NCBI RefSeq assembly: GCF_900095195.1 | Contig: NZ_LT606950.1 | Coordinates: 1,099,945-1,131,944, forward strand | DNA: 32,000 nucleotides | Source of the DNA: Polynucleobacter necessarius | Lineage (GTDB): Bacteria > Pseudomonadota > Gammaproteobacteria > Burkholderiales > Burkholderiaceae | Direction: 5' to 3' | In this document: positions 435 to 31,666 of the stretch, piece after piece | How the letters are laid out: each line of letters starts with the position of its first letter | How positions within the stretch are numbered: position 1 is the first letter of the stretch | The notes under the pieces: generated by a model | What the model was told of the DNA's origin: nothing | Databases searched by the model: none | Seen by the model: the letters and a program-made list of their open reading frames with translations, nothing else | Made by a program: the position numbers and the translations under genes

Positions 435-1922
435 CTAAACAGCTGCTTTGCGAGATCTCACTAGGCGTAAAACATTTGGGATAACCAGCAAAGCAATTGC
501 AATCACCATCAATGTGCCCGATATTGGTCGCGTAAAAAATGTGGACCAATTTCCCTGACTGATCGTTAGGGCTTGTCGCATAGACTGCTCTGCCATTGGA
601 CCCAAGATTAACCCGATAATCATCGGCGCAGCGGGAAAATCAAAACGTCGCATGCCAAAGAAATCCGAAGAAAAATAAAAGTCCAACATCGAATACAGAA
701 TTAGGGGATCCGTAAACCCCAGCTACTGAGATCACAACGATGCCAGCATAGAGCCATTGAGGAGGTATCTTTAATAACTTTACCCAAAGTCCAACTAGCG
801 GCAAATTAAGAACCAACAAAATGATATTGCCGATATATAAACTAGCAATCAAAGTCCAAACCGCTTTGCTGTGCAAACAGTGTAGGACCAACCTGAATAC
901 CATAGGATTCAAAGGCGGATAGGATAATCGCTGCTGTTGCCGATGTGGGAATACCCAAAGCCAGCAAAGGCATAGGCACTCCTACCGCGGAAGCATTGTT
1001 AGCCGCCTCAGGACCTGCGACTCTCTCTATGGCACCCTTACCAAACTCTTCTGGCTTTTTGGATAATTTCTTTCCCGTAAAGTACGAGAGCAATGTGGGT
1101 AACTCTGCGCCGCCAGCAGGCATTGCACCAATCGGAAAGCCTAATAAACCTCCCCGAATCATGCTTTCCAGGGTCTGGAAAAATCTTCTTTAGACAGCCA
1201 CAGGCTGTCCGATACTGCAAGCATCTCTGATTTCTTATTTTCCTTGCCTTGCAAGCTAGATATAAGGCCTCACCAATTGCAAAAAGCCCCACCGCAACAA
1301 TTGTTACCTCAATACCATCCAAAAATTCAGGTTGGCCAAATGTAAAACGGGGCTGTCCAGTTTGCAAATCAATGGCGATGAGTCCAAATAATAAACCTTG
1401 CTACTAATCTGATGAGACCTCGCAGAGCAGAACTTCCTAAAACGGCAGATACTGTAACCAAAGCAGAATCATGAGACTGAAATACTCTGCAGGCCCGAAA
1501 GCGAGTGCTGCATCAACTACCCAGGGAGCGAAAAACGTCAAAGCGATCGTGCCAATTGTTCCGGCTACAAAACGTCCAATTGCAGCCGTTGCTAGCGCAG
1601 ACCCTGCCCTACCGCGACGTGCCATCTTATTTCCTTCAAGCGAAGTCACAATCGTTGCTGATTCACCCGGTGTATTTAAAAGAATAGAAGTCGTTGAGCC
1701 ACCATACATTGCGCCGTAATAAATTCCGGCAAATAAAACAAAATAGCGGTTGCAGGAACCTTAAATGTTAATGGAAGCAATAATGCAATCGTCAGCGCCG
1801 GTCCAATGCCCGGCAATACGCCCACTAAGGTACCAACCAAGCAACCTAAGAACCCATAACATTAAGGTCATAGGTTCCAAAGCAACAGCAAACCCCTGCA
1901 TGAGGGAGTCAAATGAGCTCAT
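435..1922 (-). pseudogene. tctA: Tripartite tricarboxylate transporter large permease TctA, multiply frameshifted
   Basis: Six ORF fragments (1761-1922, 1437-1709, 1038-1367, 842-1162, 640-912, 435-689) lie in different frames. Together they spell a colinear TctA of about 496 codons (MSSFDSLMQGFAVALEP..., [35 protein letters not shown]..., [23 protein letters not shown]..., FDFPAAPMIIGLILGPMAEQSMRQAL...). At least 5 frame changes are needed. Confidence 0.85.
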
Positions 1923-2398
1923 AACTGTCTTTGCTTCAAAACTAAAACTGATTAATCGCCCCAAATCCACACCAAGGAGCACTGAGAATAAAGTCCAAAA
2001 AGCACCTGCGATACCCAGCACCATCAACATAGTTTTGATATTGAGCTTTGCATCAAAAGCCATTGATACACCCAAACCACACAATGTCGCGGGCATTAAA
2101 AAACCAATTACTTTTGCGAGAAAGATAAAAACAAATCCACCACCAAAAGATATATCACGCGCATTGAACCGCCTGGAAGTGGCCGCCCCTCTTCCTCATG
2201 TACACAGTCAGGCGCTTTATTCGTAATAGCGCTCAACAAATAAAAAACGCCTAATAAGGAAAGGAGTGCAACCAAAATTGACGGGGCTAATACTGGCCCT
2301 ACCTCGGAGTACATCGTAGACTCAGGAATGCTAAGAACTTGCCAAATTGCCACGCCACAAAACACCAGTAGAAAACTGGCCACCAGACGTGTACTCAT
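1923..2398 (-). pseudogene. tctB: Tripartite tricarboxylate transporter small membrane subunit TctB, frameshifted (3' boundary approximate)
   Basis: The 96-aa N-terminal fragment (2108-2398, MSTRLVASFLLVFCGVAIWQVL...) stops prematurely. The hydrophobic continuation (GGFVFIFLAKVIGFLMPATLCGLGVSMAF...LGIAGAFWTLFSVLLGVDLG) is readable only in another frame, with the shift near 2147. The ATG overlaps the tctC stop (ATGA at 2395-2398). Confidence 0.7.
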
Positions 2399-3373
2399 GC
2401 CAAACCTAACTCTTTGAGGACGGTTTCGGTTTCAGAAATGTACTTCTTAAGCTGCGCATCAAATGCAGTTCCCGATGCAAAAGCATCAATCCATTTTCTC
2501 TTTTCAAGCGTCTCTGCCCAACCCTTAGTGGCATAAATTTTTGTTGCGAGATCAATCAAGGCTGTCTTTTGGGCGGCATTAATGCCAGGCGCCCAAAAAT
2601 ACCGCGCCAATTTGCTGCAGTGACATTGACTCCGAGCTCCTTTAGGGTGGGCACATCTACGCCCGGAATTCTTTTACTACTCGAAACCGCTAGGGCCTTC
2701 ATTTTCCCCGCCTTGATTTGCTCCGCAAACTCAGAATACCCTGAGATTCCAGAAACCACTTGTCCGCCTAAAATTGCGGCATTTGCGGGGCCCCCGCCTG
2801 CAAAAACAACATATGCCGCATCCAGCGGATTCTTACCAAGCGCTTTAATGATTAAACCCAAAAGTTGATGATCTATACCGCCTGCGCTGCCACCTGCTAC
2901 CGAGACTGATTTTGGGTTTGCTTTAATAGCCTCTTCAAATTCTTTCCAAGTTTTGATCTTGCCGTCAGTAGGAGCCACAATGATTCCGGCCTCCTCAGTC
3001 AAACAAGCAATGGGAGTAACATCAGACATAGTTACTGGACTTTTATTGGTGATTGCTGCACCAACCATTACAAAACCGCCAACCATCAATGCATTAGCTT
3101 GCCCTTTACGTTGATTAACAAAACGGGGGAGCCCCACCATTCCACCAGCGCCACCAACATTTTCAAATTGAAATGACCCGACTAGACCGGCGTCTTTAGC
3201 AACTACTTCAATTGCCCTACCCGTGGTGTCCCAGCCACCTCCTGGAGCAGCAGGAATAAACATATTAATAGATTCAAACAGCGGTTTATTTTGAGCAAGG
3301 GCAAAGGAGGGGATTGTATTTACTAATGTAAATTTGAACCATAAACCAAAAATTCTCTGCGTGTTGTCTTCAT
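2395..3373 (-). pseudogene. tctC: Bug/TctC-family periplasmic tricarboxylate-binding receptor, two frameshifts
   Basis: An ATG at 3373 with a GGAGA RBS gives MKTTRREFLVYGSNLH, then TAG at 3323-3325. The signal peptide and mature protein continue in another frame (..FKFTLVNTIPSFALAQNKPLFESINMFIPAAPGGGWDTTGR...). A second shift at about 2592-2599 separates ..ANWRGIFG from APGINAAQKTALIDL...KELGLA. Total length is 979 nt, about 326 codons, which is typical for the family. Confidence 0.85.
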
Positions 3374-3469
3374 TTTTGTCTCCAAATTGACTTAGATTGC
3401 GAATCTAAATTCATATTAATTTAGTTTTCTAGAACTATACCTAAATTTAAGCTTAAGTAGCATTGATTT

Positions 3470-3880
3470 AGCGTAACGACTGAAAAGTCCAAATACCGAG
3501 GACTCGGAGCGCTTCTACGCGCATTTTTCAATAGCCAGTCTGCCAACGTAGTTTCGATTATTCCTTTGGGCACGTTACTTTCAAATATGGTGGGCGGGTT
3601 ATCTCATCGGTATCGCACTGGCTTTTTTTGGGGCAATCCAAATCTCTCACCGGAATGGAAATTGTTTGTCATTACAGGATTTTTAGGTGGCTTAACCACG
3701 TTTTCAAGTTTTTCCGCAGAAGTCGTCTCATTCGTCCAGCGTGGAGAGTTAGGGTGGGCTATTGGAACGGCGCTACTCCATTTGGAGGGATCTGTTGTTC
3801 TTACCATGCTCGGCCAAAGAAAATTGCAAGAATGGAACCCCACATTAACTTTGCCTCCTTTATTGAATAGTAAAGCCTAG
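3470..3880 (+). pseudogene. crcB: Fluoride channel CrcB/FluC, start lost and internally frameshifted
   Basis: Family motifs are present (..GLGALLR..IPLGTLLSNMVGG, then GYLIGIALAFFGA only in an alternative frame, then SPEWKLFVITGFLGGLTTFSSFS). No start codon precedes the first helix, and there are two frame switches around 3595-3650. The 3' end is extended and overlaps the neighbouring gene. Confidence 0.75.
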
Positions 3881-4641
3881 CATGCTAATTGAGCCCATCT
3901 CAATGCCATCTACGAAAACATTTGCAACCTCGCCCTCTTGTCTTAACGCCATTGCGTATAGAGCTGGCCAATAGTGCTCAGCAGTTGATATGGATAAATG
4001 GGCAGCTTCACCGTAACTACCATAATCAATCAGCGCATCGTATGCATTAGATTAAAGATTGTTAGCAAAGTAATTATTGGAGTCGACCGCCCACGGGTAA
4101 GGTGTGGAATCATCTCGCCAGTCAATAAGACGTAAATTGTGCATCACATTACCACTGGCGAGAATCAATATATTCTCATCACGCAAGGGCCTTAATTGTT
4201 TTGCAAGCTCGAAATGTTCTCTCGCTGTCTTTGGGCTGTCGAGACTTAATTGCACAACAGGCACATCCGCATTGGGATAAAGGTATTTCAGAATTGACCA
4301 TGCGCCATGATCAATACCCCATTCATTCTCCTCAAGAACAACCGGTACACCGAGTAACTCTTGAATACGATCCGCTAGCGCGGGACTTCCCGGCGCAGGG
4401 TATTGAATATCAAACAAAGCTTGAGGGAAGCCACCAAAGTCATGAATTGTTTTGGGGTTCGTCATCGCAGTAACCCAAGTCCCACGAGTCACCCAATGCG
4501 CAGAAATCGCCAAAATAGCATCAGGTCGCTGAAGTGATTCTCCAAGAGGGCTCCACAAGCCGCAGTAAAACAGTTGGGCTCTATGGCATACATCGGACTG
4601 CCATGGCCAGCAAATATTGCAGGTTGGCGATGGCGAGCCAT
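3860..4641 (-). pseudogene. ygiD: 4,5-DOPA dioxygenase extradiol (YgiD/LigB class III) homologue with a 2-nt insertion and an in-frame TAA
   Basis: MARHRQPAIFAGHGSPMYAIEPNCFTAA is in one frame. WSPLGESLQRPDAILAISAHW follows only after skipping a duplicated TG (plus-strand CACA at 4554-4557). An in-frame TAA at 4052-4054 is followed by 64 more open codons (SNAYDALIDYGSYGEAAHLSISTAEHYWPALYAMAL...). Length 782 nt minus 2 gives 260 codons. Confidence 0.85.
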
Positions 4642-4650
4642 TAAAACAAA

Positions 4651-4788
4651 TTAGCCAAAAACGTAACCAGTGTGAGCAGCCACCAATGCAAACAAAATTG
4701 CCAAACTTGTTGCAGCACCCAATATGACGATCAAGGTAATGATCTTCTTATTGATTTCCTCTTTAGATTCGTTATGCCATTCGTTCAT
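4651..4788 (-). CDS. Small hypothetical membrane protein (45 aa), not in the supplied ORF track
   Basis: The ATG is preceded by AAAGAGGA (SD-like) 7 nt upstream. Sequence: MNEWHNESKEEINKKIITLIVILGAATSLAILFALVAAHTGYVFG, a polar head followed by one clear TM helix. Stop TAA at 4651-4653. Confidence 0.45.
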   Translation of the reverse strand: MNEWHNESKEEINKKIITLIVILGAATSLAILFALVAAHTGYVFG

Positions 4789-4838
4789 GCTAAATCCTCT
4801 TTAAACACGTTCAGATTAATAATGGCCATGATTATCCA

Positions 4839-5006
4839 CTATCGACCGCGGCCAGCCTTACGCATCATGCCTTTTCCGCCACCAAACCCTGCCTGAGGCC
4901 TGCCAGCAGGTCCTGATGGGCCTTTTGGCGCTGGCGGACGGGCTGGTGGTTTTGAGATAACCGGCTTTGCTGGAGTTTTGGGGTTTGGTTTCTTATTGTC
5001 AGTCAC
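4839..5006 (-). CDS. Small basic Pro/Lys/Gly-rich hypothetical protein (55 aa, GTG start), not in the supplied ORF track
   Basis: GGAG lies 6 nt before the GTG. Sequence: VTDNKKPNPKTPAKPVISKPPARPPAPKGPSGPAGRPQAGFGGGKGMMRKAGRGR. It sits in a locally GC-rich stretch, 50 nt upstream of the 45-aa ORF on the same strand. Low complexity makes the call tentative. Confidence 0.35.
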   Translation of the reverse strand: MTDNKKPNPKTPAKPVISKPPARPPAPKGPSGPAGRPQAGFGGGKGMMRKAGRGR

Positions 5007-5034
5007 TTTGAGCTCCTATGGATATCATATTGCC

Positions 5035-5697
5035 ATGATTACCGACTATTCTATCCAAGCCGTCGCCATTAATGCGATTCCCTTGATTTTTGCTATCGCC
5101 ATCCACGAGGCAGCCCATGGTTATGCAGCCCATAAATTTGGGGATAACACCGCATACATGCTGGGCCGAGTAAGTCTTAATCCAGCCAAACATATAGATC
5201 CCGTTGGCACCATTTTGATTCCTTTGGCGCTTCTCTTGACGGGCTCACCGTTTTTAGTAGGTTACGCCAAACCAGTCCCTGTCAACTTTGGCCGCTTACG
5301 CAATCCTAGAATCGATTCCATTTGGGTTGCTTTAGCTGGTCCTGGCTCCAATTTCTTCCAAGCGCTGATTTGGGCAATATTCTTAATCCTGCTATTGGGT
5401 TTTGGAGTAAATGAGAAGTTCTTTATCTCCATGGCGCAAGCTGGCATTACCTGGAACTTGGGTTTGCTCGTCTTTAATCTTTTCCCCCTCCCGCCATTAG
5501 ATGGCGGGCGCATTCTTTCTAGCTTACTGCCAGCACGTCAGTCAATCGCATTAGGGAGATTAGAACCTTGGGGCTTTTTTATTGTTCTTGCCCTCGTATT
5601 TACCGGAATTATTGGCAATCTCTGGATGGAGCCATTAATGGCCTTTTTTAAATGGGTCGTATACCTATTTACGATGCCTCTGCAGAGGCTCTTTTAA
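5035..5697 (+). CDS. Site-2 protease family (M50) membrane metalloprotease
   Basis: HEAAHG (the HExxH motif) lies in the first TM region, and NLFPLPPLDGGR is the second conserved motif. I prefer the ATG at 5035 (MITDYSIQAVAINAIPLIFAIAIHEAAHGY) over the TTG at 4978 in the ORF track. Confidence 0.85.
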   Translation: MITDYSIQAVAINAIPLIFAIAIHEAAHGYAAHKFGDNTAYMLGRVSLNPAKHIDPVGTILIPLALLLTGSPFLVGYAKPVPVNFGRLRNPRIDSIWVALAGPGSNFFQALIWAIFLILLLGFGVNEKFFISMAQAGITWNLGLLVFNLFPLPPLDGGRILSSLLPARQSIALGRLEPWGFFIVLALVFTGIIGNLWMEPLMAFFKWVVYLFTMPLQRLF

Positions 5698-5738
5698 TTC
5701 GATTGTCATGCCAAATTCTTCGTTCTGGAGTATCCTGA

Positions 5739-5754
5739 TTTCACTTTAGTGAAA
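5739..5754. promoter_or_regulatory. Perfect 6-4-6 palindrome TTTCAC-TTTA-GTGAAA upstream of cytochrome c', candidate operator
   Basis: The inverted repeat is seen directly, 43 nt upstream of the cycP ATG. A TATAAAT -10-like element follows at 5764-5770. The regulator is unknown. Confidence 0.3.
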
Positions 5755-5796
5755 ACCATGCTGTATAAATTAATCAATATGAATAACGAGGTTTAT

Positions 5797-6249
5797 ATGA
5801 AGTTCCAAAAAATGATTCTTGCTACTACCGTTAGCGCTCTCACCATTGGGTCTGGTGTCGCGTTTGCGCAATTTCAAAAAGCTGAAGACGCAATTAAATA
5901 CCGTCAAAGTGTTTTTACCGTGATGGCAAACTCTTTTGGAAAAATCGGAGCTGTGGTGAAGGGTGAAGCCCCGTACATCAAAGATGAGGTCGCAAAAAAT
6001 GCTGCTGTTGTAGCAACCCTTTCAACATTACCTTGGCAGGCTTTTGGCCCGGGAACCGAGGGTGGCAAAGCACAGTCTGATGTTTGGTCCGATTCCGCAA
6101 AGTTCAAAGCAGCATCCGAAAAGATGCAACTAGCGGTAGCTAACTTGAACAAAGCCGCTCAATCTGGCGATCTCGGTAGCATCAAGAAATCTTTTGGAGC
6201 CGCTAGCCAGCCTTGCAAAGGCTGTCACGACGATTTCAAGAAAAAATAA
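5797..6249 (+). CDS. cycP: Cytochrome c' (class II c-type cytochrome)
   Basis: The ATG at 5797 follows GAGG. The signal peptide is MKFQKMILATTVSALTIGSGVAFA|QF. The body is helical and ends in the C-terminal haem site CKGCH (..PCKGCHDDFKKK). Confidence 0.85.
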   Translation: MKFQKMILATTVSALTIGSGVAFAQFQKAEDAIKYRQSVFTVMANSFGKIGAVVKGEAPYIKDEVAKNAAVVATLSTLPWQAFGPGTEGGKAQSDVWSDSAKFKAASEKMQLAVANLNKAAQSGDLGSIKKSFGAASQPCKGCHDDFKKK

Positions 6250-6916
6250 GATAACCAACCACTACAGCAATAACGCTTAAGAGAATTAGCGCGAAAGCGC
6301 GTTGTAAAACCCCATCTTTGGATGGCTGACCCAAGTCAGAAGGCGAATAGTCAGCCTCCTCGTTTGGGTCAATTTCTTTATCGCCCAACAACATCGGCTT
6401 GATTAAGTTTTCACCCTTATATTTCTTATAAAACCAAATGGCAGCGATATGAATGGTAACTAAGGTATAGATCAACACCTGATTACCTTCATGTATCTCC
6501 GACAAGAATGAAACTACTGCGTTAGGAACATATTTTGCTAATGGTCCCTGAAAAGCAATTTCATTGTCAACAAAAAGACCTGTTATCACCTGAACACTTA
6601 AAACAAATAACAAGGCAAAAACTGAAAGAGCGCCAATCGGGTTATGTCCCAAGTAGCGCGGCGACCTTCCCTGGAGATAACCTAAAATAGCCGACCGAGT
6701 CGGAAAGAATGCGGCAAAGCGCGCATGTTTTGAGCCAACAAATCCCCAAAGAATTCTGAAGATCAATAAGGTCAATATCGAATAACCAAAATAGGCATGC
6801 CACTCAATCGCATTACCGCCGATATTGACGCTAATGAAGCTCCCTGTAATACAGAGAACTAATAGCCAATGAAATAAACGAATCGGCAAATCCCAAACAC
6901 GAATAATTTTCTTCAT
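6236..6916 (-). CDS. Cytochrome b561 family / Ni-hydrogenase-type b cytochrome membrane protein
   Basis: MKKIIRVWDLPIRLFHWLLVL..., with four TM helices and conserved His residues (RLFHW, WHAYFGY, GHNPIGA, TIHIAAIW). It is convergent with cycP and overlaps its end by 14 nt. Confidence 0.8.
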   Translation of the reverse strand: MKKIIRVWDLPIRLFHWLLVLCITGSFISVNIGGNAIEWHAYFGYSILTLLIFRILWGFVGSKHARFAAFFPTRSAILGYLQGRSPRYLGHNPIGALSVFALLFVLSVQVITGLFVDNEIAFQGPLAKYVPNAVVSFLSEIHEGNQVLIYTLVTIHIAAIWFYKKYKGENLIKPMLLGDKEIDPNEEADYSPSDLGQPSKDGVLQRAFALILLSVIAVVVGYLIFS

Positions 6917-6958: not shown

Positions 6959-8160
6959 ATGAATCCAGGAAAAGCATTTAGAACCCTACCAATCTACCGC
7001 ATCGGAGCGACCTTAAGCTATCAAATTACGATGGTGGCGGTTGGGTGGCATATTTACGAGATTACCAATAGCGTCATATCGCTTGGCTTGATTGGCCTCG
7101 AGGAACTTGTGCCCTACTTCGCTCTAGCTCTTTATGCTGGTCATGCGGTCAATCACCATTCACGTAAATTGATTTCTGCCATTGCAGCAATCATTCATTT
7201 TCTTGTCGCACTTTTTCTTTGCGCCATTGCCCAAAACTGGCTATCACCTCCAGTGCCGTTGATTTACATCGCTATAGGATTCATCGGCATCGCGAGAGCA
7301 CTACTTCGACCCTCATACCAAGCATTATTTGGACAAATCATCCCGCGCGACCAACTAAGCAAATACATGGCTTATGGAAACGTCTCCTTTCAAATCTGTG
7401 TAGTAGCGGGTCCCGGATTAGGGGGTTGATGATTGGTTTCACAGGCTTAACCGCTACTTATGGATTGGCTGCGCTCTGCGGATTAATGAGTCTGTACGGC
7501 GTATCGTTCATTCAGGCGAAATCAGAAAAATCCAAACCCGCAGAAAACCTTTTGAAAAGCTTTAAACAGGGGTTTGATTACGTTCGCAAACATGACCTAA
7601 TTCTGAGCACGATGGCTTTAGATATGTTTGCCGTGCTATTTGGTGGTGCCGTCTCAATACTCCCTGCATTTGTGAGCGACGTTCTGCATGCCGGCCCCGA
7701 GACACTTGGTATTTTGAGGGCTGCTCCAGCGGCAGGATCGGTACTCATGGGCGTCTATCTTGCAAAACAGCCTATATTGCACAACTCCGGGAAATATTTG
7801 CTTCTATCGGTGGCAGGCTTTGGTCTCTCAATAATCTGTTTTGGACTTTCAACACAATTGTGGATTTGTGCTTTCTTTCTTCTGCTTTCAGGGTGCTTTA
7901 ATTCCGTCTCTGTAGTAATTCTAAGCAGTATCGTTCAATTAACAACACCCGATAACATGCGTGGAAGAATAAGCGCTATTAATGGAATATTCATCGGGCC
8001 ATCGAATGAATTAGGCGCTCTAGAGTCAGGTATTGCAGCCAGTCTTTTGGGTTTAGTCCCATCCATTATTTTTGGATGAGCTGCAACCTTACTGATTGTA
8101 TTGATCACGTATAGGCTTGCGCCAAATTTATATCGATTTCTTATCCGCGATATCACTTAA
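6959..8160 (+). pseudogene. MFS transporter (EntS/MFS_3-like) with a frameshift and an in-frame TGA
   Basis: ..VVAGPGLGG stops at a G5 run (7421-7425), and the sequence continues as LMIGFTGLTATYGL... in another frame. An in-frame TGA at 8077-8079 (..VPSIIFG*) is followed by 26 open codons encoding the last helix (AATLLIVLITYRLAPNLYRFLIRDIT). Length 1202 nt plus 1 gives 401 codons. Confidence 0.85.
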
Positions 8161-9090
8161 TCTCAGGCAAATCCTTTTGAATGATTTTCAGGCCCTCACG
8201 TAAGGCAGTTTGATAGCGCTCACGCTCTGCTTTCATGGATTCCGAAGTCCAAGAATAAAACCCTTCGCCTGTTTTCATGCCAAACTTGCCGCTTTCAACC
8301 CGACTGCTGAGACACTTTGCAATCGTTGGTGAATTATTTAATGCGGGATAAATCGTAGCCCCTCCAGCAGCATGAACTTCAAGACCAGCGTGATCGTGCT
8401 GCATTGCGGGGCCAGCGGCTATGTAACGAAATCCAAAACCAAACCGTACAGCCTTATCAATATCCTCTGGGGTACAAATTCCTGCGTCAACCATCGCAAA
8501 CGCTTCACGAGACAATGCATGTTGCAAACGATTTGCCAAGACCCTGGCAAATCTTTTTTTACAGTGACTGGAACCCATGCCACACAAGGTCATAAAACGA
8601 GACAAACTCTCTGCAACCATACGGGATGTCTTTTCACCGTACACCACCTCAACACAGGGAACTAAATGTGCCGGCATAAAAAATGTAACCCAATCATCCG
8701 AGCAGCAGTTTTTAAATCGCCGGCGATTTGACTAATCGGAAAGCTAGTGCTGTTACTAGCTAGAACTGCTTCGGATTTTGCGTATTGCTCTAGTTTGGCA
8801 AATAACTCTTGTTTCATATCCAAGCGCTCTGGTACACATTCAATGACCAGATCGATGTCCGCCCAATCCACCTCCTCCAAAGAGCCCGCTATCGAGAGTA
8901 AATGGATACGGCGTTGTATCCCAATTCCGTCATTGGTGTTCGTAAAGTAATCCGGCAATAGCGCACGACGTTCTGTGGTGGGCTCCACTACCTGCACCGC
9001 ACAACCGCCACGAGCGCAGACGGCAGCAACATCAGCGCCCATCGTGCCGCCACCAACCACCACCTTGGTTTGAGCTGGGGTAAACAACAT
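8153..9090 (-). pseudogene. 3-hydroxyacyl-CoA dehydrogenase family (HCDH / lambda-crystallin-like) oxidoreductase, frameshifted
   Basis: An AGGAG RBS precedes the ATG at 9090. The Rossmann motif VVVGGGTMGADVAA is present. ..RMIGLHF breaks at a T6 run (plus-strand A6 at 8678-8683) and resumes as MPAHLVPCVEVVYGEKTS. The conserved VPVTVKKDLPG block is readable only in an alternative frame between about 8540 and 8578. Length 938 nt plus 1 gives 313 codons. Confidence 0.8.
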
Positions 9091-9171
9091 GATTTTTCTC
9101 CTAAAAGGTAGGACTTTTTTCAAAATCCCCATATAATGGGGCCATTATTCCAATAAAAATCTGAGACAAAC

Positions 9172-10099
9172 ATGATTCCCGTCAATTCGGTGTTACAGGT
9201 CGGTTTTTTCCTGAGATTATGCAGGCGGAAATTAATCGTCGCCTAACACCGGTTCGTCAACCAGATGCGAGCGCCCCACCACCATCTGGGAATTTTGAAG
9301 CAATTTTGGTGCGCTCCATACAGCCCTTCCTGAAGCGCTCGTCAAACAGATCCCCAGTATTCGCATGGTATCGACTTGTGGTGTTGGTTATGACAACCTG
9401 CCCCTGAGCTATCTCAAACAACATGGAATCAAAGCAAGCAATACCCCTGGCGTTCTAAATGACGCAGTGTGTGAATTAGCCATCGGCATGATGCTGAGCC
9501 TATTACGACACATTCCCGAATCGCAAGAACATGTTAAATCTGGCGCTTGGTCTAAAGGCGTATTCCCACTCACCACCACATTGGCAGGCAAAAGAATAGG
9601 CATTGTCGGCATGGGTCGCATTGGCCAGGACTTAGCAAGTCGTTTGGAACCATTTAAGGTTGAGATTGCCTATACAGGACCGAGCCCAAAGCCAGTGCCA
9701 TACACCTATTACCCACAAATACTGGATCTAGCCAAAGCGTGCGATGTCATGTTCATAGCTTGCCCAGCGAGTCTGCAAACCGATCGTTTAATCAATGCCA
9801 AGGTGCTAGATGCCCTGGGAAAATCGGCGTATTTAATCAATATTGCACGCGGCAGTGTTATTGATGAAGGAGCACTTTTAGGTGCACTGCAACATAAAGT
9901 AATAGCCGGTGCTGCGTTAGATGTCTTTAACAACGAACCTAATCTCAACCCCGCATTTTTAGATCTTGATAATATCTTACTGACACCCCACATTGGAAGT
10001 GCTACCTTAGAAACACGGATAGCCATGACAAACTTAGCTATAGATAATTTAGAGGCATTCTTTAAAAAACAACCACTTCCCTCAGAAGTGCATTATTAA
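9172..10099 (+). pseudogene. D-isomer-specific 2-hydroxyacid dehydrogenase (glyoxylate/hydroxypyruvate reductase-like), two frameshifts in the N-terminal domain
   Basis: MIPVNSVLQVGFF is in frame 1. The frame shifts at the T6/CC run (9204-9211) to ..MQAEINRRLTP..FEAILVRS in frame 3, then shifts near 9318 to TALPEALVKQIPSIRMVSTCGVGYDNL...GMGRIGQDLA...HIGSAT in frame 2. Length 928 nt plus 2 gives 310 codons. Confidence 0.85.
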
Positions 10100-12037: not shown

Positions 12038-12053
12038 GCTGACATAGGCCAAT

Positions 12054-20280: not shown

Positions 20281-20350
20281 TTTGGGTAAAAAGATTGGGT
20301 AACTTGCGTGTTCACCCTAATAGAATAAACTGTCTGCATAATTACCCTAT

Positions 20351-21121: not shown

Positions 21122-21133
21122 ATCAAACCTCGA

Positions 21134-21594: not shown

Positions 21595-21605
21595 CGCTTA
21601 TCAGC

Positions 21606-23063: not shown

Positions 23064-23085
23064 TAAATGTACCTAACTACAGAAA

Positions 23086-24012
23086 TTACTTCGTTGTTGC
23101 TGGCTGCTTATTGTTCGATAAACCCCACACATAAGCGGTTAACAACTGAATTTTCTCAGGACTTAATACTTTGTCTTGAGCAGGCATTTGAGCCATACGA
23201 CCTTTGGTAACTGTCTCAATAATTGTCGCTTCAGAACCGCCATACAACCACGTTTTATCTGTTAAGTTCGGTACGCCTAGAGCAATATTACCCTTACCAT
23301 CTGGGCCATGACATGCTGCGCAATTGGCTTTAAATACTTCAGCGCCACGCGCAGCCTTGAAATCATCCGCTGGTAAACCAGATAGACTGCGAACATAGTT
23401 AGCAACATCCACAATTTGCTTACTATCCAATTGTGGGAATGGAGGCATTACGCCAGCGCGTCCATTTACGATAGTAGTTTTGATGTTTTCTGGTGACCCA
23501 CCATACAACCAATCACCGTCTGTCAAATTCGGGAAGCCTTTGGCACCACCAGCATCTGAACCATGACATTGTGCGCAAGAGTTCAAGAATAAACGTTGAC
23601 CCATTTCACGTGCTTTTGGATCAGCAGCAACTTGCTCAATGTCCATCTTTACATATTTTGCGTAGACAGGCTTGAGCTCATCGTTGGCCGCCGTCATGGA
23701 CTTCATTAGTGCGCCGTCAGTGCTATAGCCCAAAACACCTGGATAAGAACCCAGTCCTGGGTAAAGAACTAAATAGACTAATCCAAAGATGCAAGAGATT
23801 AAGAACATCCACATCCACCAGCGTGGCAATGGATTATTCAGTTCACGAAGGTCGTCATCCCATACGTGACCAGTATCTGCCACCTCTCCGTCAGGCTTGA
23901 CCTTCACCTTCACTTTGAGTTGAGAAAATAATAACCAGACGCACCAAACAATACCGACCAATGTTACTAGGGCGATATAGGCACTCCAACCGGCACTAAG
24001 AAAATCACTCAT
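23086..24012 (-). CDS. ccoP: cbb3-type cytochrome c oxidase subunit III, dihaem CcoP
   Basis: Two haem c sites (CAQCHG and CAACHG) and an N-terminal TM with the NPLPRWWMWMF motif. Confidence 0.95.
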   Translation of the reverse strand: MSDFLSAGWSAYIALVTLVGIVWCVWLLFSQLKVKVKVKPDGEVADTGHVWDDDLRELNNPLPRWWMWMFLISCIFGLVYLVLYPGLGSYPGVLGYSTDGALMKSMTAANDELKPVYAKYVKMDIEQVAADPKAREMGQRLFLNSCAQCHGSDAGGAKGFPNLTDGDWLYGGSPENIKTTIVNGRAGVMPPFPQLDSKQIVDVANYVRSLSGLPADDFKAARGAEVFKANCAACHGPDGKGNIALGVPNLTDKTWLYGGSEATIIETVTKGRMAQMPAQDKVLSPEKIQLLTAYVWGLSNNKQPATTK

Positions 24013-24176
24013 GATTTATCCTTACTGAATTCATCGGGTAGATCGAACGGAAGTTCGGCGGATTCTTGATTGGCAGGCTGTCTTTTTGCAGACCAAGCCC
24101 ACCAAACGATTCCTAGAAATACAACCAAGCCAAGCACGGTAGAAAGTGCTGAGAGGTGCGGTGCGATATTTTGCAT
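24009..24176 (-). CDS. ccoQ: cbb3-type oxidase small subunit CcoQ (55 aa), not in the supplied ORF track
   Basis: MQNIAPHLSALSTVLGLVVFLGIVWWAWSAKRQPANQESAELPFDLPDEFSKDKS has a single TM and sits between ccoO and ccoP. Its stop overlaps the ccoP ATG (ATGA). Confidence 0.85.
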   Translation of the reverse strand: MQNIAPHLSALSTVLGLVVFLGIVWWAWSAKRQPANQESAELPFDLPDEFSKDKS

Positions 24177-24195
24177 AGTTCCCAATAGCTAAGAA

Positions 24196-24846
24196 TTACT
24201 TAGCTACAACCTCATCAACAACAATATATCTACGGTTCACGCCAAGATCCTGAAGGTATGCGACCAAGGCATCCAATTCAGTCTTGCCTTCCAATTCTTT
24301 TGGCGCATTGGCAATATCTTCATCCGTGTACGGAACGCCTAAACGACGCATTGCAACCATATGCGACTGAATCGTGCTTGCATCAGCAGCATTCTTAGCC
24401 AAATAGGGGTATGCAGGCATATTTGACTCTGGCACCACATCACGCGGATTATTTAAGTGAATTTGATGCCATGCATCGGAGTAACGACCACCAACACGCG
24501 CCAAATCTGGACCTGTACGTTTGCTACCCCACATAAATGGATGGTCGTAAACAGACTCGCCCGCCAATGAATAAGGGCCATAACGCTCTACTTCGGAGCG
24601 CAATGTACGAATCTGCTGTGAGTGGCAACCTAGGCAACCTTCACGTTGATAGATGTCGCGACCAGCTAAACGTAGTGCTGAATATGGCACCACTCCTGGA
24701 CTAGGTTCAGTGGTTGAGTGCTGGAAAAACAATGGCACGAGCTGCACCAAACCTGCGATTGAAATCACGACAATCGTAGTGATGATCAACCAACCAACAT
24801 TACGCTCAAGCGTTTCGTGGGAGAAAAATCGACGTTGTTCTGACAT
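24196..24846 (-). CDS. ccoO: cbb3-type cytochrome c oxidase subunit II, monohaem CcoO
   Basis: The haem site is CLGCHSQ, there is an N-terminal TM, and the length of 216 aa fits. Confidence 0.95.
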
Positions 24847-24856
24847 GTTCTTATCC

Positions 24857-26299
24857 TTAGTGAGCGGCGATAGACGCTTGTGGAATAGGAGCGTCTACGA
24901 ATTTTTTGTTAACCACTGTTTTGTAGACGTTGTAAGCCATCAACAACATACCGCTTAAGTAGCACAGGCCGCCTAATAAACGAATGACATAGAAAGGATA
25001 GGTCGCTTTCACTGACTCTACGAAGCTATAAGTCAGAGTACCGTCAGGTTCAAAAGCTCTCCACATCAAGCCCTGCATCACACCAGCAATCCACATAGCA
25101 GCGATATAAATTACTACCCCGATAGTTGCGATCCAGAAATGCAGCTCGATTAACTTAGTACTGTACATATCGCGCTGACCTACTAAACGTGGGATGAGAT
25201 AGTACAAAGAGCCAATTGTGATCATGGCAACCCAACCTAGCGCACCGGAGTGTACGTGACCAATAGTCCAATCGGTGTAGTGAGAGAGGCTATTCACTGT
25301 CTTGATCGACATCATGGAGCCTTCGAAAGTAGACATACCGTAGAAGGACAATGCAACTACCAAGAATTTCAGGATTGGGTCACGGCGCAATTTGTGCCAT
25401 GCGCCAGATAAAGTCATGATGCCGTTGATCATACCGCCCCAGGATGGCGCCAATAAGATCAATGAGAACACCATACCCAATGACTGGGTCCAATCAGGCA
25501 ATGCGGTGTGTTGCAGGTGGTGAGGACCCGCCCACATATAAGTGAAGTTCAATGCCCAAAAGTGAACGATCGATAAGCGATAGGAGTATATCGGACGCTC
25601 CGCTTGCTTCGGAATGAAGTAGTACATCATGCCCAAGAAGCTAGTAGTTAAGAAGAAGCCCACTGCATTATGTCCGTACCACCATTGAATCATGGCATCT
25701 TGTGCGCCAGCATAAGCAGAATATGACTTAAACAAGCTTGCTGGCATTTCAATATTGTTAACAATATGCAATACAGCAATTGTCAAAATATAAGCGCCGA
25801 AGAACCAATTTGAAACGTAGATATGTTTTGTCTTGCGCTTGATCACAGTACCAAAGAAGACAATTGCGTAAGCAACCCAAACGACAGTAATTAAGATGTC
25901 AATTGGCCACTCTAATTCAGAGTACTCTTTTGAAGTAGTAATACCAAGCGGCAAAGTGATGGCAGCAGAAACAATCACAGCTTGCCAACCCCAGAATGTA
26001 AACGCCGCTAACTTGTCACAGAAAAGGCGAACTTGACAGGTTCTTTGCACGATGTAATACGACGTTGCAAACAACGCCGAGCCACCGAACGCAAAAATCA
26101 CAGCATTGGTATGTAACGGACGCAAACGACCATAACTTAACCAAGGGATGTTAAACGTGATTTCAGGCCAAATTAACTGTGCCGCAAGGATGACCCCCAC
26201 GAGCATGCCGACGATTCCCCAAAGTACGGTAACGATGGCAAATTGGCTGATAACCTCGTAATTAAAGGTATCTTGATTACTCCCCACGGTAAGTCCCAT
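24857..26299 (-). CDS. ccoN: cbb3-type cytochrome c oxidase subunit I, CcoN
   Basis: A polytopic haem-copper oxidase subunit (..HNAVGFF.., ..WAGPHHL.., ..[10 protein letters not shown]..). I prefer the ATG at 26299 ([10 protein letters not shown]..), which is preceded by AAGGAGAAACC, over the upstream ATG at 26332. Confidence 0.95.
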
Positions 26300-26352
26300 G
26301 GTTTCTCCTTTTTTGTGACCAAACAACGACATAATCCAAATAGACTGATTGA

Positions 26353-26358
26353 ATTATC
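26353..26358 (-). promoter_or_regulatory. Predicted -10 hexamer (GATAAT) of the ccoN promoter
   Basis: On the minus strand, GATAAT lies exactly 22 nt after the FNR box. That places it at -12..-7 if the box is centred at -41.5. Confidence 0.6.
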
Positions 26359-26380
26359 GAATTGAGCCCCTAAGGTGGGT

Positions 26381-26394
26381 TTGATCTATATCAA
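26381..26394 (-). promoter_or_regulatory. Perfect FNR/Anr box TTGAT-CTAT-ATCAA upstream of ccoNOQP
   Basis: An exact match to the TTGAT-N4-ATCAA consensus, centred 88 nt upstream of the ccoN ATG. The fnr gene, whose product carries the matching E--SR helix, is in the same window. Confidence 0.85.
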
Positions 26395-26465
26395 AAAAGG
26401 AGGGGTAAAATAATTCTGGTCAGCAAGAAGAACATTGAGTTAAGTTAACTCTATGTTTTTATTTA

Positions 26466-26645
26466 TTATTTTTGTGAGCTATCACTAACTTTTTGTGGCT
26501 TTGGGACATCATCATCCATCAAAATGGACTCGCCTGGACCGCTCAGATCATCGAACTGACCGCTTTTGACTGACCAGCGCAAAATCCATGCCAAAAGTCC
26601 CACCAATAGCAGCGACAGAGGGATCAAAATAAATAGGCTTTCCAT
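26466..26645 (-). CDS. ccoS: cbb3 oxidase maturation protein CcoS/FixS (59 aa), not in the supplied ORF track in this frame
   Basis: MESLFILIPLSLLLVGLLAWILRWSVKSGQFDDLSGPGESILMDDD.. is the typical CcoS sequence (FxWxxKSGQFDDLxGxxxRIL-like). It starts 9 nt after the ccoI stop. Confidence 0.85.
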   Translation of the reverse strand: MESLFILIPLSLLLVGLLAWILRWSVKSGQFDDLSGPGESILMDDDVPKPQKVSDSSQK

Positions 26646-26654
26646 CCCTATAGT

Positions 26655-29099
26655 CTAAGCTTTTCGCAAACGCCAGGCATTTAAGGTCACCGCCAAAGAG
26701 GAAAGTGACATGCTGATACCAGCAACCCAGGGATTTACCAAACCCAACATTGCCGCTGGAATTGCGAGCACGTTGTAAACCAAGGCCCACAATAAATTCT
26801 CTTTAATAATGGCCTGCGTCTTTTGAGCAAGCCCTAACGTTTTCGCCAATGGCTCGAGTGAGCTTGCAGTCAATATGGCATCAGCTCCTGCGGCAGCTAG
26901 CGGCGCTCCAGCACCTACCGCAATGGATACGTCTGCACGAGCTAATAAGGGCGCATCGTTGACGCCATCGCCAATCGCCCATACAAAGCGTTTCTCATTT
27001 TGCAAACGCTCAATATATTCATATTTTTCTTCTGGAGTGCAGGCGCCTCGAAAATGTTTTATGCCAACATGATCTGCCCACCATGCAACCGTTGCAGGGT
27101 CATCCCCAGAAACTAAATGGACGGTAACATTTTTTGATTTTGCGGCATCTAATAAATTTTTTAAACCAACTCTTGGTGTATCCAAAAATACAAAGCTAGC
27201 TATCAACCCCTGGTCATCAGCAAGAAGTACTTGCCCGTATTGACCATTTTCTCGAGACGGAGACTGATTCTGGACACCTAGCCACGCAGCACTTCCAAGG
27301 CGATATGCCCCAGAGCTCAATCCCTTACCAAGTTGATTCATTACGGGATCTTGTAATTGCGCTGGAGAGAGATTTTCATGCTCAGCTGCTCGTAATAGCG
27401 ATAGCGCTAGAGGATGTCTTTGGCCAGCTTCTAGCGCTGTTGCAAGTGCTAATGCATCTTCACGACGATAACCCTGTCGCAGATGAATAACCTTTTTCAA
27501 CTCAGGCTGCCCCATTGTGAGGGTACCAGTTTTATCCAAAACAAGATCGGTTGCCTTGACTAAGCCCTCTAACACATGCCCTCTCACAATCAGCAATCCT
27601 AATTTGGTTACAGCGCCTTGTGCGGCTGCCATTGCCGTTGGAACAGCTAACGATAGAGCACAAGGACAGCTTGCAACAAGCACGGATACGAGCACGGTCC
27701 ATGCTTGACCAGGATCGAAATACAGCCACACTGCAGAAGAAACAAATGCACTTAATAATAAGAACGCAACAAAATAGGCTGCCCACTTTTCAGCAAGACT
27801 CACCATCACTGGTTTTACCAGCAAGGCCTGATCTAGCAGGGAAGCAATACCCGCAATCCGCGTAGATTGGCCCACTGCATCGATTCTCATGATGAGAGGG
27901 TTCAAAATATTGTGGGTACCAGCATACACACGATCGCCAATTTTTTTCTCAACAGGCTTAGATTCGCCAGTAAGCAGCGATTCATCAAGCGCGCTGGCAT
28001 TCTCAATTAAGAACCCATCCGCAGGTACCACTTCGCCAGGTGGTACACGCAGCATTTCGCCTGGGGCGCAATTGACTACCGGTACAACTTCTACTTCTTG
28101 AGTTTGTGGGTAATTTAGAATACGTTCGCAGGTTGCAGGTAATTGCTTTGCTAACGCCTCTGCCCCACCCTGAGCATCCTGTCGAGCTAATAATTCCACA
28201 TAACGCGCAGCCAAAATAAATGCTACAAACATCGTGATGGAATCAAAATAACTTTGGCCAGAGCCAGCAATTAAATTAATCGTTCCCGCACTAAACGCGA
28301 GTGCAGGCGCCAATGCAATGGGAACATCCATGCTCAACATCCGCGTTTTCTTAAACGATTGCACACTTCGCCATGCCGCTTGAAATATCGGCCCCGCTGA
28401 ATACACCATTACTGGAACGGTGAGCGCCCAGCTGGTCCAGCCCAATAGAGTTTCAAACTCAGGCGTGATGTCGGCATTAACGTAGGTAGGCCAGGCATAC
28501 ATCATGACTTGCATCATGCCCAACATGGCAACACCAAGCCGAGTCAGTAGCTGCCGCTTTTCTTTTTTTGCCCTCTCAAGAGAAAGGGAGGGCTCAAACG
28601 GCCAAGCTTCGTAACCAATGCGCTCAACCTCAAATAACAATCTTGCTAGACTTGTTTTTTCCGGATTAAAGCGAACAATGGCTTTTTGAGTAACGTAATT
28701 AATCTGTACATCCATTACACCAGTAGTGCGACGCAAATGCTGCTCAGATAACCAAACACAGGCAGCACAGCGAATTTTTTCGAGACGTAGCGTTGCTTCA
28801 AGATCACCAGACTCTCCATATACTCTAGTAAACCTACTACGCAGAGATGGATCATCGTAGGGCTTTAATTTCTCTGGAATTTCATTGGATGCCAAGTATG
28901 CCGCGGGCTTTTCACCAATCTGGGGGCGACGCGCATAAAAAACTTCCAGACCTTCCCCGTGAATTGTTTGCGCGATAGCCATACACCCGGGGCAGCAAAA
29001 CTGACGCTGAACCCCCCCCACCTCTGCCTCCAGTAAATCCATTGGCAAAATAGCGCTCGAGCAGTGATAGCAGGAAAATAAATTGCTGTGTGCCATCAC
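26655..29099 (-). CDS. ccoI: Copper-translocating P1B-type ATPase CcoI/FixI
   Basis: The N-terminal region reads CYHC...CCPGC, the membrane motif is CPC (ASCPCALSLAVP), and DKTGTLT, GDGVNDAP and a TGES-like TGESKP are present. The start is GTG 29099 or the adjacent ATG 29096 (MAHSNLF..). Confidence 0.95.
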   Translation of the reverse strand: MMAHSNLFSCYHCSSAILPMDLLEAEVGGVQRQFCCPGCMAIAQTIHGEGLEVFYARRPQIGEKPAAYLASNEIPEKLKPYDDPSLRSRFTRVYGESGDLEATLRLEKIRCAACVWLSEQHLRRTTGVMDVQINYVTQKAIVRFNPEKTSLARLLFEVERIGYEAWPFEPSLSLERAKKEKRQLLTRLGVAMLGMMQVMMYAWPTYVNADITPEFETLLGWTSWALTVPVMVYSAGPIFQAAWRSVQSFKKTRMLSMDVPIALAPALAFSAGTINLIAGSGQSYFDSITMFVAFILAARYVELLARQDAQGGAEALAKQLPATCERILNYPQTQEVEVVPVVNCAPGEMLRVPPGEVVPADGFLIENASALDESLLTGESKPVEKKIGDRVYAGTHNILNPLIMRIDAVGQSTRIAGIASLLDQALLVKPVMVSLAEKWAAYFVAFLLLSAFVSSAVWLYFDPGQAWTVLVSVLVASCPCALSLAVPTAMAAAQGAVTKLGLLIVRGHVLEGLVKATDLVLDKTGTLTMGQPELKKVIHLRQGYRREDALALATALEAGQRHPLALSLLRAAEHENLSPAQLQDPVMNQLGKGLSSGAYRLGSAAWLGVQNQSPSRENGQYGQVLLADDQGLIASFVFLDTPRVGLKNLLDAAKSKNVTVHLVSGDDPATVAWWADHVGIKHFRGACTPEEKYEYIERLQNEKRFVWAIGDGVNDAPLLARADVSIAVGAGAPLAAAGADAILTASSLEPLAKTLGLAQKTQAIIKENLLWALVYNVLAIPAAMLGLVNPWVAGISMSLSSLAVTLNAWRLRKA

Positions 29100-30343
29100 T
29101 TATGCAGGTTTTTTATCAACCCAGCCATTGCGGCGCTCATACATCACAAACATCACAAACAAAACGCCCCACATCACCACGGCAACATATGCCCATACCC
29201 ATGCACTTTGTGAAGCACGAGAGCCAGCAACATCCAACACGAAGCCAAAGATCGCTGGGCCCATTAAGCCACCGCCAAAGCCCATTAATGAATGCAAACC
29301 CATTGCAGCGCCTTTAATATTTTCCTGAGCACTAATGACCAATTCCACCGTTAAGGTAGCGGAGTCAGCCATAATAAAAATGGCATGGCCTATTGCAAGC
29401 GCAACAATGAGCCACCAAGAGTGGCCAGTAGACAGAGCCAACGAAATCCCCATGACTGCACTAGTTAGCATCACAATGCAGACCCATTTTTGTCGCCCCA
29501 CTCTTAGGGTAATCTCATTTCCCAAGATAGATGAAGGGACCCCAAAGAAATTGATTACGCCAGCTAAGGTCGTTGCTGCGAGAAAAAAAGATTCGCCAGA
29601 AGCAGTCGCACAAAAAGCAAAGAACGCCACAATCCAACTTCTAGAAGCAAATAGCTCAAGTGAGTGCACGGTATAACCAAAAATAAATCCCGAAGCTTTT
29701 TTATTTTCCAGTGCTAACTTCCACTTCTCTACTGGAAATGCGTCGTGCAATCGAATTTGGAGGGGGCCCTTCCATTTTTCTTGCGCAAGTGGTGGTATAA
29801 GCAACAACACAATTAAAAATGCTGTAAACGGTCCCAGCGCAATAATCCCAAATACATAATGCCAACCCAGTGCACTCAAAATCCATCCAGAGCATAGGTA
29901 TGAAAACCTGTCCCGATTCCGAAGAAGGCGGTATAAAAAGCAATATGACAAATTAGCTCGCCAGACTGAATTCGATCAGACAAGATTTTTAGTCCAGGCA
30001 TATACGTGCCTGCAAGGCCTGCAGCATTAATCGCCATAAACAATAAAGCGGTCCAAAAATTATGGGCTAATAGAGACATGCCCAACAAACCACAGGTAGC
30101 AGATAGACCGCCAACCAAATAGACTTTTCGTGCGTCTATGCGATCAGTCAATGCAGTTGCCAGTGGGACCGCCAGCATGTAGCCAAAAAAGAAGACGCTA
30201 GCAATCAGACCAGACTCGAGATTACTTAACTGCCACTCATCCTGTAAGGGGGCCAACACTACCGCATAGCAGGCAAAACCCAGCAATGCGCAGGTTTGCG
30301 CCAGGAGCATAAGAGGGGTGTAACCAATTGATCGAAAGCGCAT
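29100..30343 (-). pseudogene. MFS transporter, frameshifted; its stop abuts the ccoI start
   Basis: MRFRSIGYTPLMLLAQ...AFYTAFFGIGTGF breaks at a T4 run (plus-strand A4 at 29903-29906). It continues as SYLCSGWILSALGWHYVFGI...ERRNGWVDKKPA in another frame. Length 1244 nt plus 1 gives 415 codons. Confidence 0.8.
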
Positions 30344-30452
30344 AGAGTATTCGTAAAAACCTAGGGCTATTCTACTCGCCAAAGTGTCACCCCAAGCCCC
30401 ACCCATAACCTGCCATTAACCGCTACACTAATAAAAACAGAATGGAGACAAT

Positions 30453-31436
30453 ATGAAGAAAATACCTTTCCTGCGTTACTGCTTTAGCCTAGGCCTGGGC
30501 GTTGCTTTTAGCTTAATCAGTTCTGCCACGCTAGCAGATAACTATCCTTCAAAACCGATTAAAGCAATCGTTCCATTTGCGCCGGGCAGTTCTACAGATC
30601 AAATTGGTCGTGCATTTGCTGCCAAGATGGCTGAATCCCTTGGCCAACCCGTGGAGATTGAAAATCGTCCCGGCGCCAATGGCATGATTGGCGCTAATGT
30701 AGTCGCTAAGTCACTCGCTGACGGCTACACCCTACTATTTGGTACAAATAGTACCAATGCAGCACTCAAAAGCTTGGTCAAAATTTACCCTATAACCAAG
30801 ACACAGCCTTTACACCAATTGGTTACTTTGGTTCTGTGCCACTCATCGTTGCAGTGAATAATGAACTGCCCGTGAAGTCACTCAATGGGTTTGTTTCACT
30901 AGCAAAAGCAGATCCTGGAAAAATTCCCTTTGCGTATGCCAGTACATCGCAACGCGTTTCCTCAGAAATGTTAGCGAGTGCAACCGGGATTCAGATGACT
31001 GGCGTCTCTTATAAAAGTGGGCCGAATGCCATGACGGATCTCATTGGCGGTCAAGTCAATATGTTTACCGCTGACTTTGCAGTGACATTACCGCAAGTTC
31101 AAGCTGGAAAAATTCGTGGCTTAGCAGTCACCTCACTCAAACGTTCGCCCGCCATCCCAGAGTTACCCACTGCCAATGAAGCATTGGGCATCAAAAACTA
31201 TGAACTCATCGCATTCTTTGCGGCCTTTGGCCCAGCTGGCATGCCAAAAAAATGCCGTTCTGAAACTGAATAAGGCCATTAATGATGCCGCTAAATCAAA
31301 GGACTTAACGGAACGTTTTGCATCCATGGGCTTTGAGACACAACCCGGTATGCCAGAAGCGCTTGCGCAAAAAATTAAACTGGAAACCGCTAAGTGGGCT
31401 CAAGCGATTAAAGCAGCCGGCATGGAAGCTGAGTAA
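30453..31436 (+). pseudogene. Orphan Bug/TctC-family periplasmic binding protein, two frameshifts at A-runs
   Basis: GGAGACAAT precedes the ATG, and the signal peptide is MKKIPFLRYCFSLGLGVAFSLISSATLA. The shift at A4 (30780-30783) turns ..SLVK into NLPYNQDTAFTPIGYFGSVPLIVAVNN.. The shift at A7 (31246-31252) turns ..GPAGMPK into NAVLKLNKAINDAAK..AAGMEAE. The total of 984 nt equals 328 codons (net zero). Confidence 0.85.
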
Positions 31437-31437
31437 C

Positions 31438-31666
31438 TTACAACTCGCTATTAATCTCAATGGACAGGAGCCAGTAGGACAGGCTCTTGCCATGAGAATC
31501 AAGATTTAAAGAGAGATTGACTCCGCCATACGATGAACCATCGATCACAAAATTAAAAGCCATCAAGTTTAATAAATCATAGCGCGTTACTGAGCTAGGA
31601 TTCGAAATCCGAAATGCGCTTTTACCCTCTCCGCAGTTAATTCTTTTTGCAAGAGTTCAAAGTCAT
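31438..31666 (-). pseudogene. Decayed small ORF or C-terminal domain that follows the AtuA/DUF1446-like gene (DUF4387-like by sequence pattern, tentative)
   Basis: An ATG immediately after the upstream TAA gives MTLNSCKKN, then a stop. The plausible protein text (..FELLQKELTAERVKAHFGFRILAQ, then ..VTRYDLLNLMAFNFVIDGSSYGGVNLSLNLDSHGKSLSYWLLSIEINSEL) needs two further frames. Confidence 0.5.

Follow-up and report, generated by a model that had tools for sequence, protein, structure and literature searches.

Many full-length pseudogenes with few lesions, a deletional bias and a retained core energy metabolism are known from Sodalis glossinidius/SOPE, Serratia symbiotica and Mycobacterium leprae. 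For the genus Polynucleobacter, the genome of P. necessarius STIR1 was reportedly compared with that of free-living P. asymbioticus by Boscaro et al. (2013, PNAS), and Boscaro et al. (2017, Nat Ecol Evol) are said to have described genomes reduced in parallel in Polynucleobacter symbionts of independent origin. The 2013 work is cited here through PMC5018217 and PMC5632650, the 2017 work through PMC9539572 and PMC11253213. The emended description of P. necessarius gives a genome of ~1.6 Mb, a G+C content of 44-46% and "a large number of pseudogenes" (PMC5018217); the species is ~18% pseudogenised without mobile elements (PMC5632650), and less coding DNA, a larger number of pseudogenes and the loss of assimilation pathways are noted for the symbionts (PMC11253213). 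A pseudogene-rich genome free of mobile elements is thus already described for this species and the phenomenon is known. Here we analyze 32 kb of P. necessarius chromosomal DNA (the window), in which about one gene in three is broken and a cbb3-type cytochrome oxidase locus is retained. Very probably, this is endosymbiont DNA in an early-to-middle stage of reductive evolution, where decay is mutational, not mediated by insertion sequence (IS) elements, and still ongoing, and where respiration and envelope genes are kept. The observations carrying this interpretation are the lesions themselves, intact orthologues in free-living strains, the partial sharing of lesions with a sister strain and the near-neutral evolution of the broken genes.

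The window resembles STIR1 in species label, genome size (~1.55-1.6 Mb), GC content (~45%), substantial pseudogenisation, the lack of mobile elements and losses in uptake and assimilation. It also agrees with the emended species description, with a GC content that is even along its length (43-48%) and 13-14 pseudogenes among 36 genes, although its local pseudogene density (13/36) is about twice the ~18% quoted genome-wide. As in the parallel reduction attributed to Polynucleobacter symbionts, the same genes were hit independently, namely in the window, in the sister strain and in a third lineage (L001), here within one 32-kb region and in metagenome-derived contigs. Full-length pseudogenes with few lesions, a deletional bias and conserved core energy metabolism are shared with Sodalis glossinidius/SOPE, Serratia symbiotica and M. 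leprae. In contrast to Sodalis-type genomes and M. leprae, which show IS or repeat expansions, the window has none and decays by point mutation, small indels and small inversions.

Lesions were located by tblastn of translated open reading frames (ORFs) from free-living Polynucleobacter against the window (query loci L002 and L007, P. asymbioticus CP015016 (L083), and the lake-metagenome contigs L084, L085, L092 and L122), and each broken gene was aligned at codon level with one to seven intact orthologues. Family names were taken from the Pfam matches of intact orthologues or from precomputed Pfam matches. Along its length the window is colinear with loci of free-living Polynucleobacter, the nucleotide identity being ~73-75% (about 72-77% in long blastn blocks), and its ORF map alternates between stretches of short overlapping ORFs and regions of single long ORFs. 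An earlier interpretation based on the letters and ORFs of the window (the sequence-only reading) had named 13 broken genes, about one third of the total and ~11.5 kb. All 13 proved to be interrupted, amounting to 13 of the 36 genes in the gene model built here and to ~11.1 kb (Table 1). They are colinear with free-living orthologues, which are syntenic and of almost the same length, and none of the free-living orthologues compared carries the same interruptions. In the census each gene was intact in 10-56 free-living loci (tctA in 52), with a single comparator each for the second MFS transporter gene (MFS2) and the orphan Bug receptor gene. A further 26 tctA matches in free-living loci were flagged as interrupted; the examples inspected contained no stops, and these matches, apparently distant homologues whose alignments end early, were not counted.

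The sequence-only reading had explained the lengths of the broken genes by single small indels and had proposed that little deletion had yet occurred. Its arithmetic was sound, lengths of 782, 928, 938 and 1202 nucleotides agreeing with the alignments, but a single small indel suffices only for tctB, the enolase-superfamily gene and MFS2, and the remaining broken genes carry two to eight lesions each. The genes are indeed near full length; tctA, for example, measures 1488 nucleotides against 1500 in its orthologue (76.5% nucleotide identity to L085) and retains its start and stop codons, and the ygiD-like gene measures 782 against 780. The AtuA-associated ORF, however, has already lost 116 bp and crcB has been inverted. 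Across the pseudogenes of the window, small deletions outnumber small insertions by ~24 to 6.

In crcB, an inversion has placed a core of ~310 bp (about 3500-3825) on the + strand, opposite to its flanks when compared with six of six free-living relatives. The first 32 nucleotides (5' end, about 3826-3850) and the last 35 (3' end, about 3464-3499) are still on the original - strand, and the +1/-1 indel pair of this gene sits within the inverted core. No long inverted repeat was found at the junctions. An Rfam scan of the window returned no family at the gathering threshold and hence no fluoride riboswitch with crcB; there is no space for one, since crcB begins ~10 nucleotides past ygiD in relatives. 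A possible fourteenth pseudogene, missing from the earlier list, is the chrA-like gene at the start of the window. A premature TAA at 367-369 (codon 172 of 195) cuts ~22 residues, homology continues past this stop, and the PF02417 domain of the orthologue reaches residue 189.

The lesions were compared with those of a sister strain, ~98.5% identical to the window and independently assembled from three data sets, one from ENA (ERZ27248707, a 38.5-kb contig; L081, L164) and two as Logan assemblies (SRR32119647, L082; SRR8208349, L165). Its contigs cover window positions 5925-31668. At least four lesions are common to both strains (-1 at 7422, -1 at 8542, -1 at 29904 and the DUF2177 TAG), and the DUF2177 -1 at 17640 is likewise unchanged in the sister. 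At five or more window lesions the sister keeps the free-living state: 14603 (-2), 8576 (+1), 17528 (-1), 31246 (+1) and 8077 (TGA). Its Bug gene has a -2 at 31225 in place of the +1 of the window, and its enolase-family gene retains the two bases at 14603, the lesions peculiar to the sister in this gene being a 296-bp deletion and a +1. Deletions of 296-990 bp lie inside three of the pseudogenes in the sister (window equivalents 7505-8031, 8665-9654 and 14930-15225), and extra indels restricted to it were found in MFS2 (1-bp), Bug, 2-HADH and DUF2177. Compared in this way, some inactivations appear to have preceded the divergence of these strains, and others to have followed it. The proposed recency of the inactivations can be upheld in relative terms, as the pseudogenes retain 67-78% nucleotide identity to free-living orthologues (crcB 61-65%), compared with about 72-77% in the long blastn blocks of the window, and several lesions post-date the sister split.

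The same comparison bears on the possibility that the genes are in truth intact and that errors of sequencing or assembly produced the frameshifts and stops. Many of the 1-bp indels fall in short homopolymer runs (e.g. GG-GGG at 7422 and GGG at 8576), five or more lesions occur in the window alone, and the enolase-family gene carries one lesion only, all of which speaks for errors. Four lesions, however, are found again in assemblies made independently from further samples, the damage extends to up to eight lesions per gene, nonsense substitutions, the 116-bp deletion and an inversion, and ~20 kb of intact genes in the same window are free of such errors. Moreover, the pseudogenes change about twice as fast as the intact genes and show no codon-position bias, and the same genes were separately destroyed in the sister and in L001. 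Errors are very improbable as the main source of the interruptions.

Genes that are intact in the window were not always spared in the sister, where SulP, the TRAP permease and the DHDPS-like gene are broken (L164:2580-6691, 11297-12791). Compared with the window, the TRAP permease of the sister is free of indels but was called in pieces of 482 and 90 amino acids, which suggests inactivation by a nonsense substitution; a protein search for it gave no 99% match, the gene itself being broken there. The sequence-only reading had placed the losses in nutrient uptake and peripheral catabolism. This functional pattern is in part a matter of chance, because the surviving transporters differ between the sister strains. 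When species-representative genomes were scanned with the TRAP permease, matches were confined to Polynucleobacter and allied Burkholderiales, the top match reaching 94% amino acid identity. All close loci are from Polynucleobacter, and a 100%-identical M23 protein and a 99%-identical CcoI fall into clusters with WP_231968564.1 and WP_114662922.1, respectively, both from P. necessarius (taxid 576610).

Substitution density between window and sister is 0.90% in genes intact in both, 1.75% in pseudogenes and 2.3% in intergenic DNA, and the excess of pseudogenes over intact genes corresponds to an odds ratio of 1.96 (Fisher p = 2.6e-6). Within pseudogenes, substitutions are spread evenly across codon positions (24:26:29), and 53 are nonsynonymous and 26 synonymous, the counts for genes intact in both strains being 70 and 49. 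These figures indicate that the broken genes evolve near-neutrally and faster than the retained ones. For the genes intact in both strains (window 5925-31668 against L164/L081), 70:49 implies a rough ratio of nonsynonymous to synonymous substitution rates (dN/dS) near 0.5. Such a value would imply that purifying selection is weak across the whole region, intact genes included.

Evidence from outside the pair of strains comes from L001 (L001:1-10887), a contig of a GTDB representative metagenome-assembled genome (SRP342105_co2_15) that is closer to the window (~80% nucleotide identity) than any free-living genome. It is the only locus with stop codons in the orthologue census, and its lesions, nonsense only, differ from those of the window (ygiD TAG174 and TAG183, HCDH TGA77, 2-HADH TGA217). 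In addition, its enolase-family gene is degraded and a 2.4-kb block of ygiD, M50 and cytochrome c' is inverted. Independent hits on the same genes are found when the window is compared with the sister (enolase family, Bug, HCDH, DUF2177, MFS2) and with L001 (ygiD, HCDH, 2-HADH). Between L001 and the window this is parallel decay rather than a shared programmed feature, and the pseudogenes of L001 suggest that it is probably another host-restricted Polynucleobacter lineage within the species-representative set.

The distribution of lesion sites is also relevant to a possible residual function of the interrupted genes, through programmed frameshifting, transcriptional slippage or split subunits. 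In some insect endosymbionts, genes with a frameshift are partly restored by slippage at homopolymer tracts; three genes of the window have just one small indel, and start and stop codons are mostly retained. Residual function is nevertheless hardly credible for these genes: the lesion sites are not conserved among the window, the sister and L001, most genes are hit several times, stops included, three of them have lost 0.3-1 kb in the sister, and substitutions in the broken genes look neutral. No recoding signal was found, nor is one expected in these families.

As to the cause, the sequence-only reading had invoked relaxed selection after host restriction, which fits the source species, an obligate endosymbiont of Euplotes, and is very probably the explanation. 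Uptake and peripheral-catabolism genes would have been made dispensable by the host cytoplasm, and selection would no longer keep them. Such genes would then gather nonsense substitutions, small indels with a bias towards deletion and, now and then, inversions and deletions of less than 1 kb. Respiration (the cbb3 oxidase with its assembly genes, FNR and the cytochromes), the envelope and housekeeping functions would still be under selection, though weakened. Decay proceeds by mutation, not by IS elements, and is continuing. Alternatively, a free-living Polynucleobacter could have gained the pseudogenes by drift or by a narrowing of its niche; free-living members of the genus are themselves streamlined and the window carries no host information. 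Against such an origin, which we consider most unlikely, the species name and the 1.55-Mb genome fit the described symbionts and not the free-living strains of 2.0-2.5 Mb, the interruptions occur in none of the cultured free-living genomes compared, and even intact genes show a high nonsynonymous share, as in symbionts with small populations.

Several points weigh against decay in a host-restricted endosymbiont. Both host restriction as the cause and the loss of function of the broken genes are deduced from the sequence and its taxonomic label. The ratio of nonsynonymous to synonymous substitutions does not differ significantly between pseudogenes and intact genes (p = 0.30), likely because the intact genes are themselves weakly constrained, and on the branch of the window, measured against two free-living genomes, pseudogenes exceed intact genes in relative rate only weakly (median ratio 4.0 for pseudogenes and 1.7 for intact genes, one-sided p = 0.049). 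The lesions of tctCBA, crcB and ygiD lie in window 1-5924, outside the sister coverage on which independent confirmation relied. Lesions found only in the window may, each individually, be errors, and this applies chiefly to the enolase-family gene with its sole lesion, the -2 at 14603.

IS-driven decay, as in Sodalis or Shigella, would leave IS elements or repeats that break genes, and none was found in the window. In line with the sequence-only reading, the window has no repeats of 25 nucleotides or more and only two intergenic gaps of more than 120 bp, the rest consisting of syntenic genes. There is no room for an IS element, because the window is free of repeats and its sequence is fully accounted for.

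Small inversions were encountered in all three lineages. Besides the inverted crcB core of the window and the inverted block of L001, the sister has a 220-bp inversion in DUF2177 (L164:9768-10236; window equivalent 17513-17735) and two nested inversions, from ~17974 to 31710 and from ~18030 to 30770 in window equivalents, by which SulP and AtuA are split (L164:10236-11292; L081:8222-8270 and 21015-22071). The nested events swap and invert a 56-bp piece of SulP (17974-18030) and a 0.94-kb piece (30768-31710) with the 3' end of Bug and AtuA_ferredoxin. The arrangement in the window is the ancestral one, because it matches the free-living genomes. One inner breakpoint of the sister (30768-30773) coincides with the 1-bp Bug deletion of the window at 30772. 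A search for inverted repeats where the inversions join their flanks gave only microhomologies of at most 7 bp, not above chance. We tentatively suggest, as an idea with the odds against it, that sub-kb inversions are a recurrent and under-appreciated class of lesion in a decaying genome free of IS elements and repeats. If so, they could indicate a specific mutational process of the symbiont, e.g. template switching in replication following the loss of repair genes, and not ordinary homologous recombination.

The genes described as retained by the sequence-only reading, ccoISNOQPG, fnr, uspA, M23, M50, SulP and cytochrome c', align at full length and are free of stops, and the same holds for cytochrome b561, the DHDPS-like gene, the TAXI-type TRAP receptor, the TRAP permease, the DsbD_2-family gene and two small ORFs. 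Amino acid identities to P. asymbioticus, again at full length and stop-free, are 98% for ccoN, 92% for ccoO, 85% for ccoQ, 90% for ccoP, 89% for ccoG, 84% for ccoS and 85% for ccoI. In these alignments, the cbb3-type cytochrome oxidase locus is complete, with all subunit and assembly genes uninterrupted and a short FixH-like ORF included. A small ORF of 55 amino acids between ygiD and M50, retained intact in the window, shows 85-95% amino acid identity across Polynucleobacter loci and belongs to no Pfam family. No tRNA genes were found within the window.

Table 1 Features of the 32-kb window of P. necessarius, with lesions given relative to intact free-living orthologues (nt, nucleotides; aa, amino acids).
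Feature	Position	Strand	Condition, lesions and family
chrA-like chromate-transporter-family gene, 3' part	1-435	+	window starts inside gene; tblastn alignment passes one stop; possible pseudogene
tctA pseudogene, tripartite tricarboxylate transporter large membrane subunit	437-1922	-	8 indels; PF01970 (orthologue)
tctB pseudogene	1937-2398	-	single -1 at 2148; PF07331; intact in 10 free-living loci
tctC pseudogene	2397-3373	-	-1 at 3336, -1 at 2593; PF03401; intact in 56 free-living loci
crcB (fluoride channel) pseudogene	3464-3850	mixed	inverted core; +1 at ~3596, -1 at 3631; PF02537
ygiD-like LigB-family dioxygenase pseudogene	3862-4641	-	+2 (TT) at 4558, TAA at 4054; PF02900; intact in 25 free-living loci
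Pro/Lys/Gly-rich small ORF, 55 aa	4839-5006	-	intact; between ygiD and M50
M50 peptidase	5008-5697	+	intact
Cytochrome c'	5797-6249	+	intact
Cytochrome b561	6236-6916	-	intact
MFS transporter pseudogene 1 (MFS1)	6959-8160	+	-1 at 7422, -3 at 7532, TGA at 8077; 1202 vs 1206 nt
3-hydroxyacyl-CoA dehydrogenase-family (HCDH) pseudogene	8155-9090	-	-3 at 9058, -1 at 8681, +1 at 8576, -1 at 8542; 938 vs 942 nt
D-2-hydroxyacid dehydrogenase (2-HADH) pseudogene	9172-10099	+	-1 at 9205, -1 at 9317; 928 vs 930 nt; PF02826 on sister fragment
DHDPS-like gene	10123-11052	+	intact in window
TAXI-type TRAP receptor	11087-12037	+	intact
Fused TRAP permease	12121-14133	+	intact in window
Enolase-superfamily (MR/MLE) pseudogene	14219-15348	-	sole lesion -2 at 14603; 1132 vs 1134 nt
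M23 peptidase	15390-16922	+	intact
UspA	16987-17427	-	intact
DUF2177 pseudogene	17518-17917	+	-1 at 17528, TAG at 17580, -1 at 17640
SulP	17925-19553	+	intact in window
DsbD_2-family membrane protein	19561-20280	-	intact
fnr	20351-21121	+	intact
cbb3 oxidase region	21134-29099	-	intact; includes an 81-aa ORF and a FixH-like ORF
ccoG	21606-23063	-	intact
ccoP	23086-24012	-	intact
ccoQ	24009-24176	-	intact
ccoO	24196-24846	-	intact
ccoN	24857-26332	-	intact
ccoS	26466-26645	-	intact
ccoI	26655-29099	-	intact
MFS transporter pseudogene 2 (MFS2)	29105-30343	-	single -1 at 29904
Orphan Bug/TctC-family receptor pseudogene	30453-31436	+	-1 at 30772, +1 at 31246; 984 vs 984 nt
AtuA_ferredoxin (PF23544) ORF remnant	31440-31666	-	116-bp 5' deletion (first ~32 codons lost) plus -1; vs 108-aa sister ORF
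atuA, 3' end	31667-32000	-	in frame; runs past window end

From the raw sequence alone, genome decay had been recognised correctly, together with its progress by point mutation and even the genus likely to be involved, which validates that approach. Only two points are mildly new, namely the order of events as resolved between strains and the fact that small inversions recur. In its biology, the window restates the published view that P. necessarius is a young symbiont in the midst of losing genes. The two symbiont strains, ~1.5-2% apart at neutral sites, provide an ordered and datable series of inactivation, erosion and rearrangement for modelling early genome reduction.

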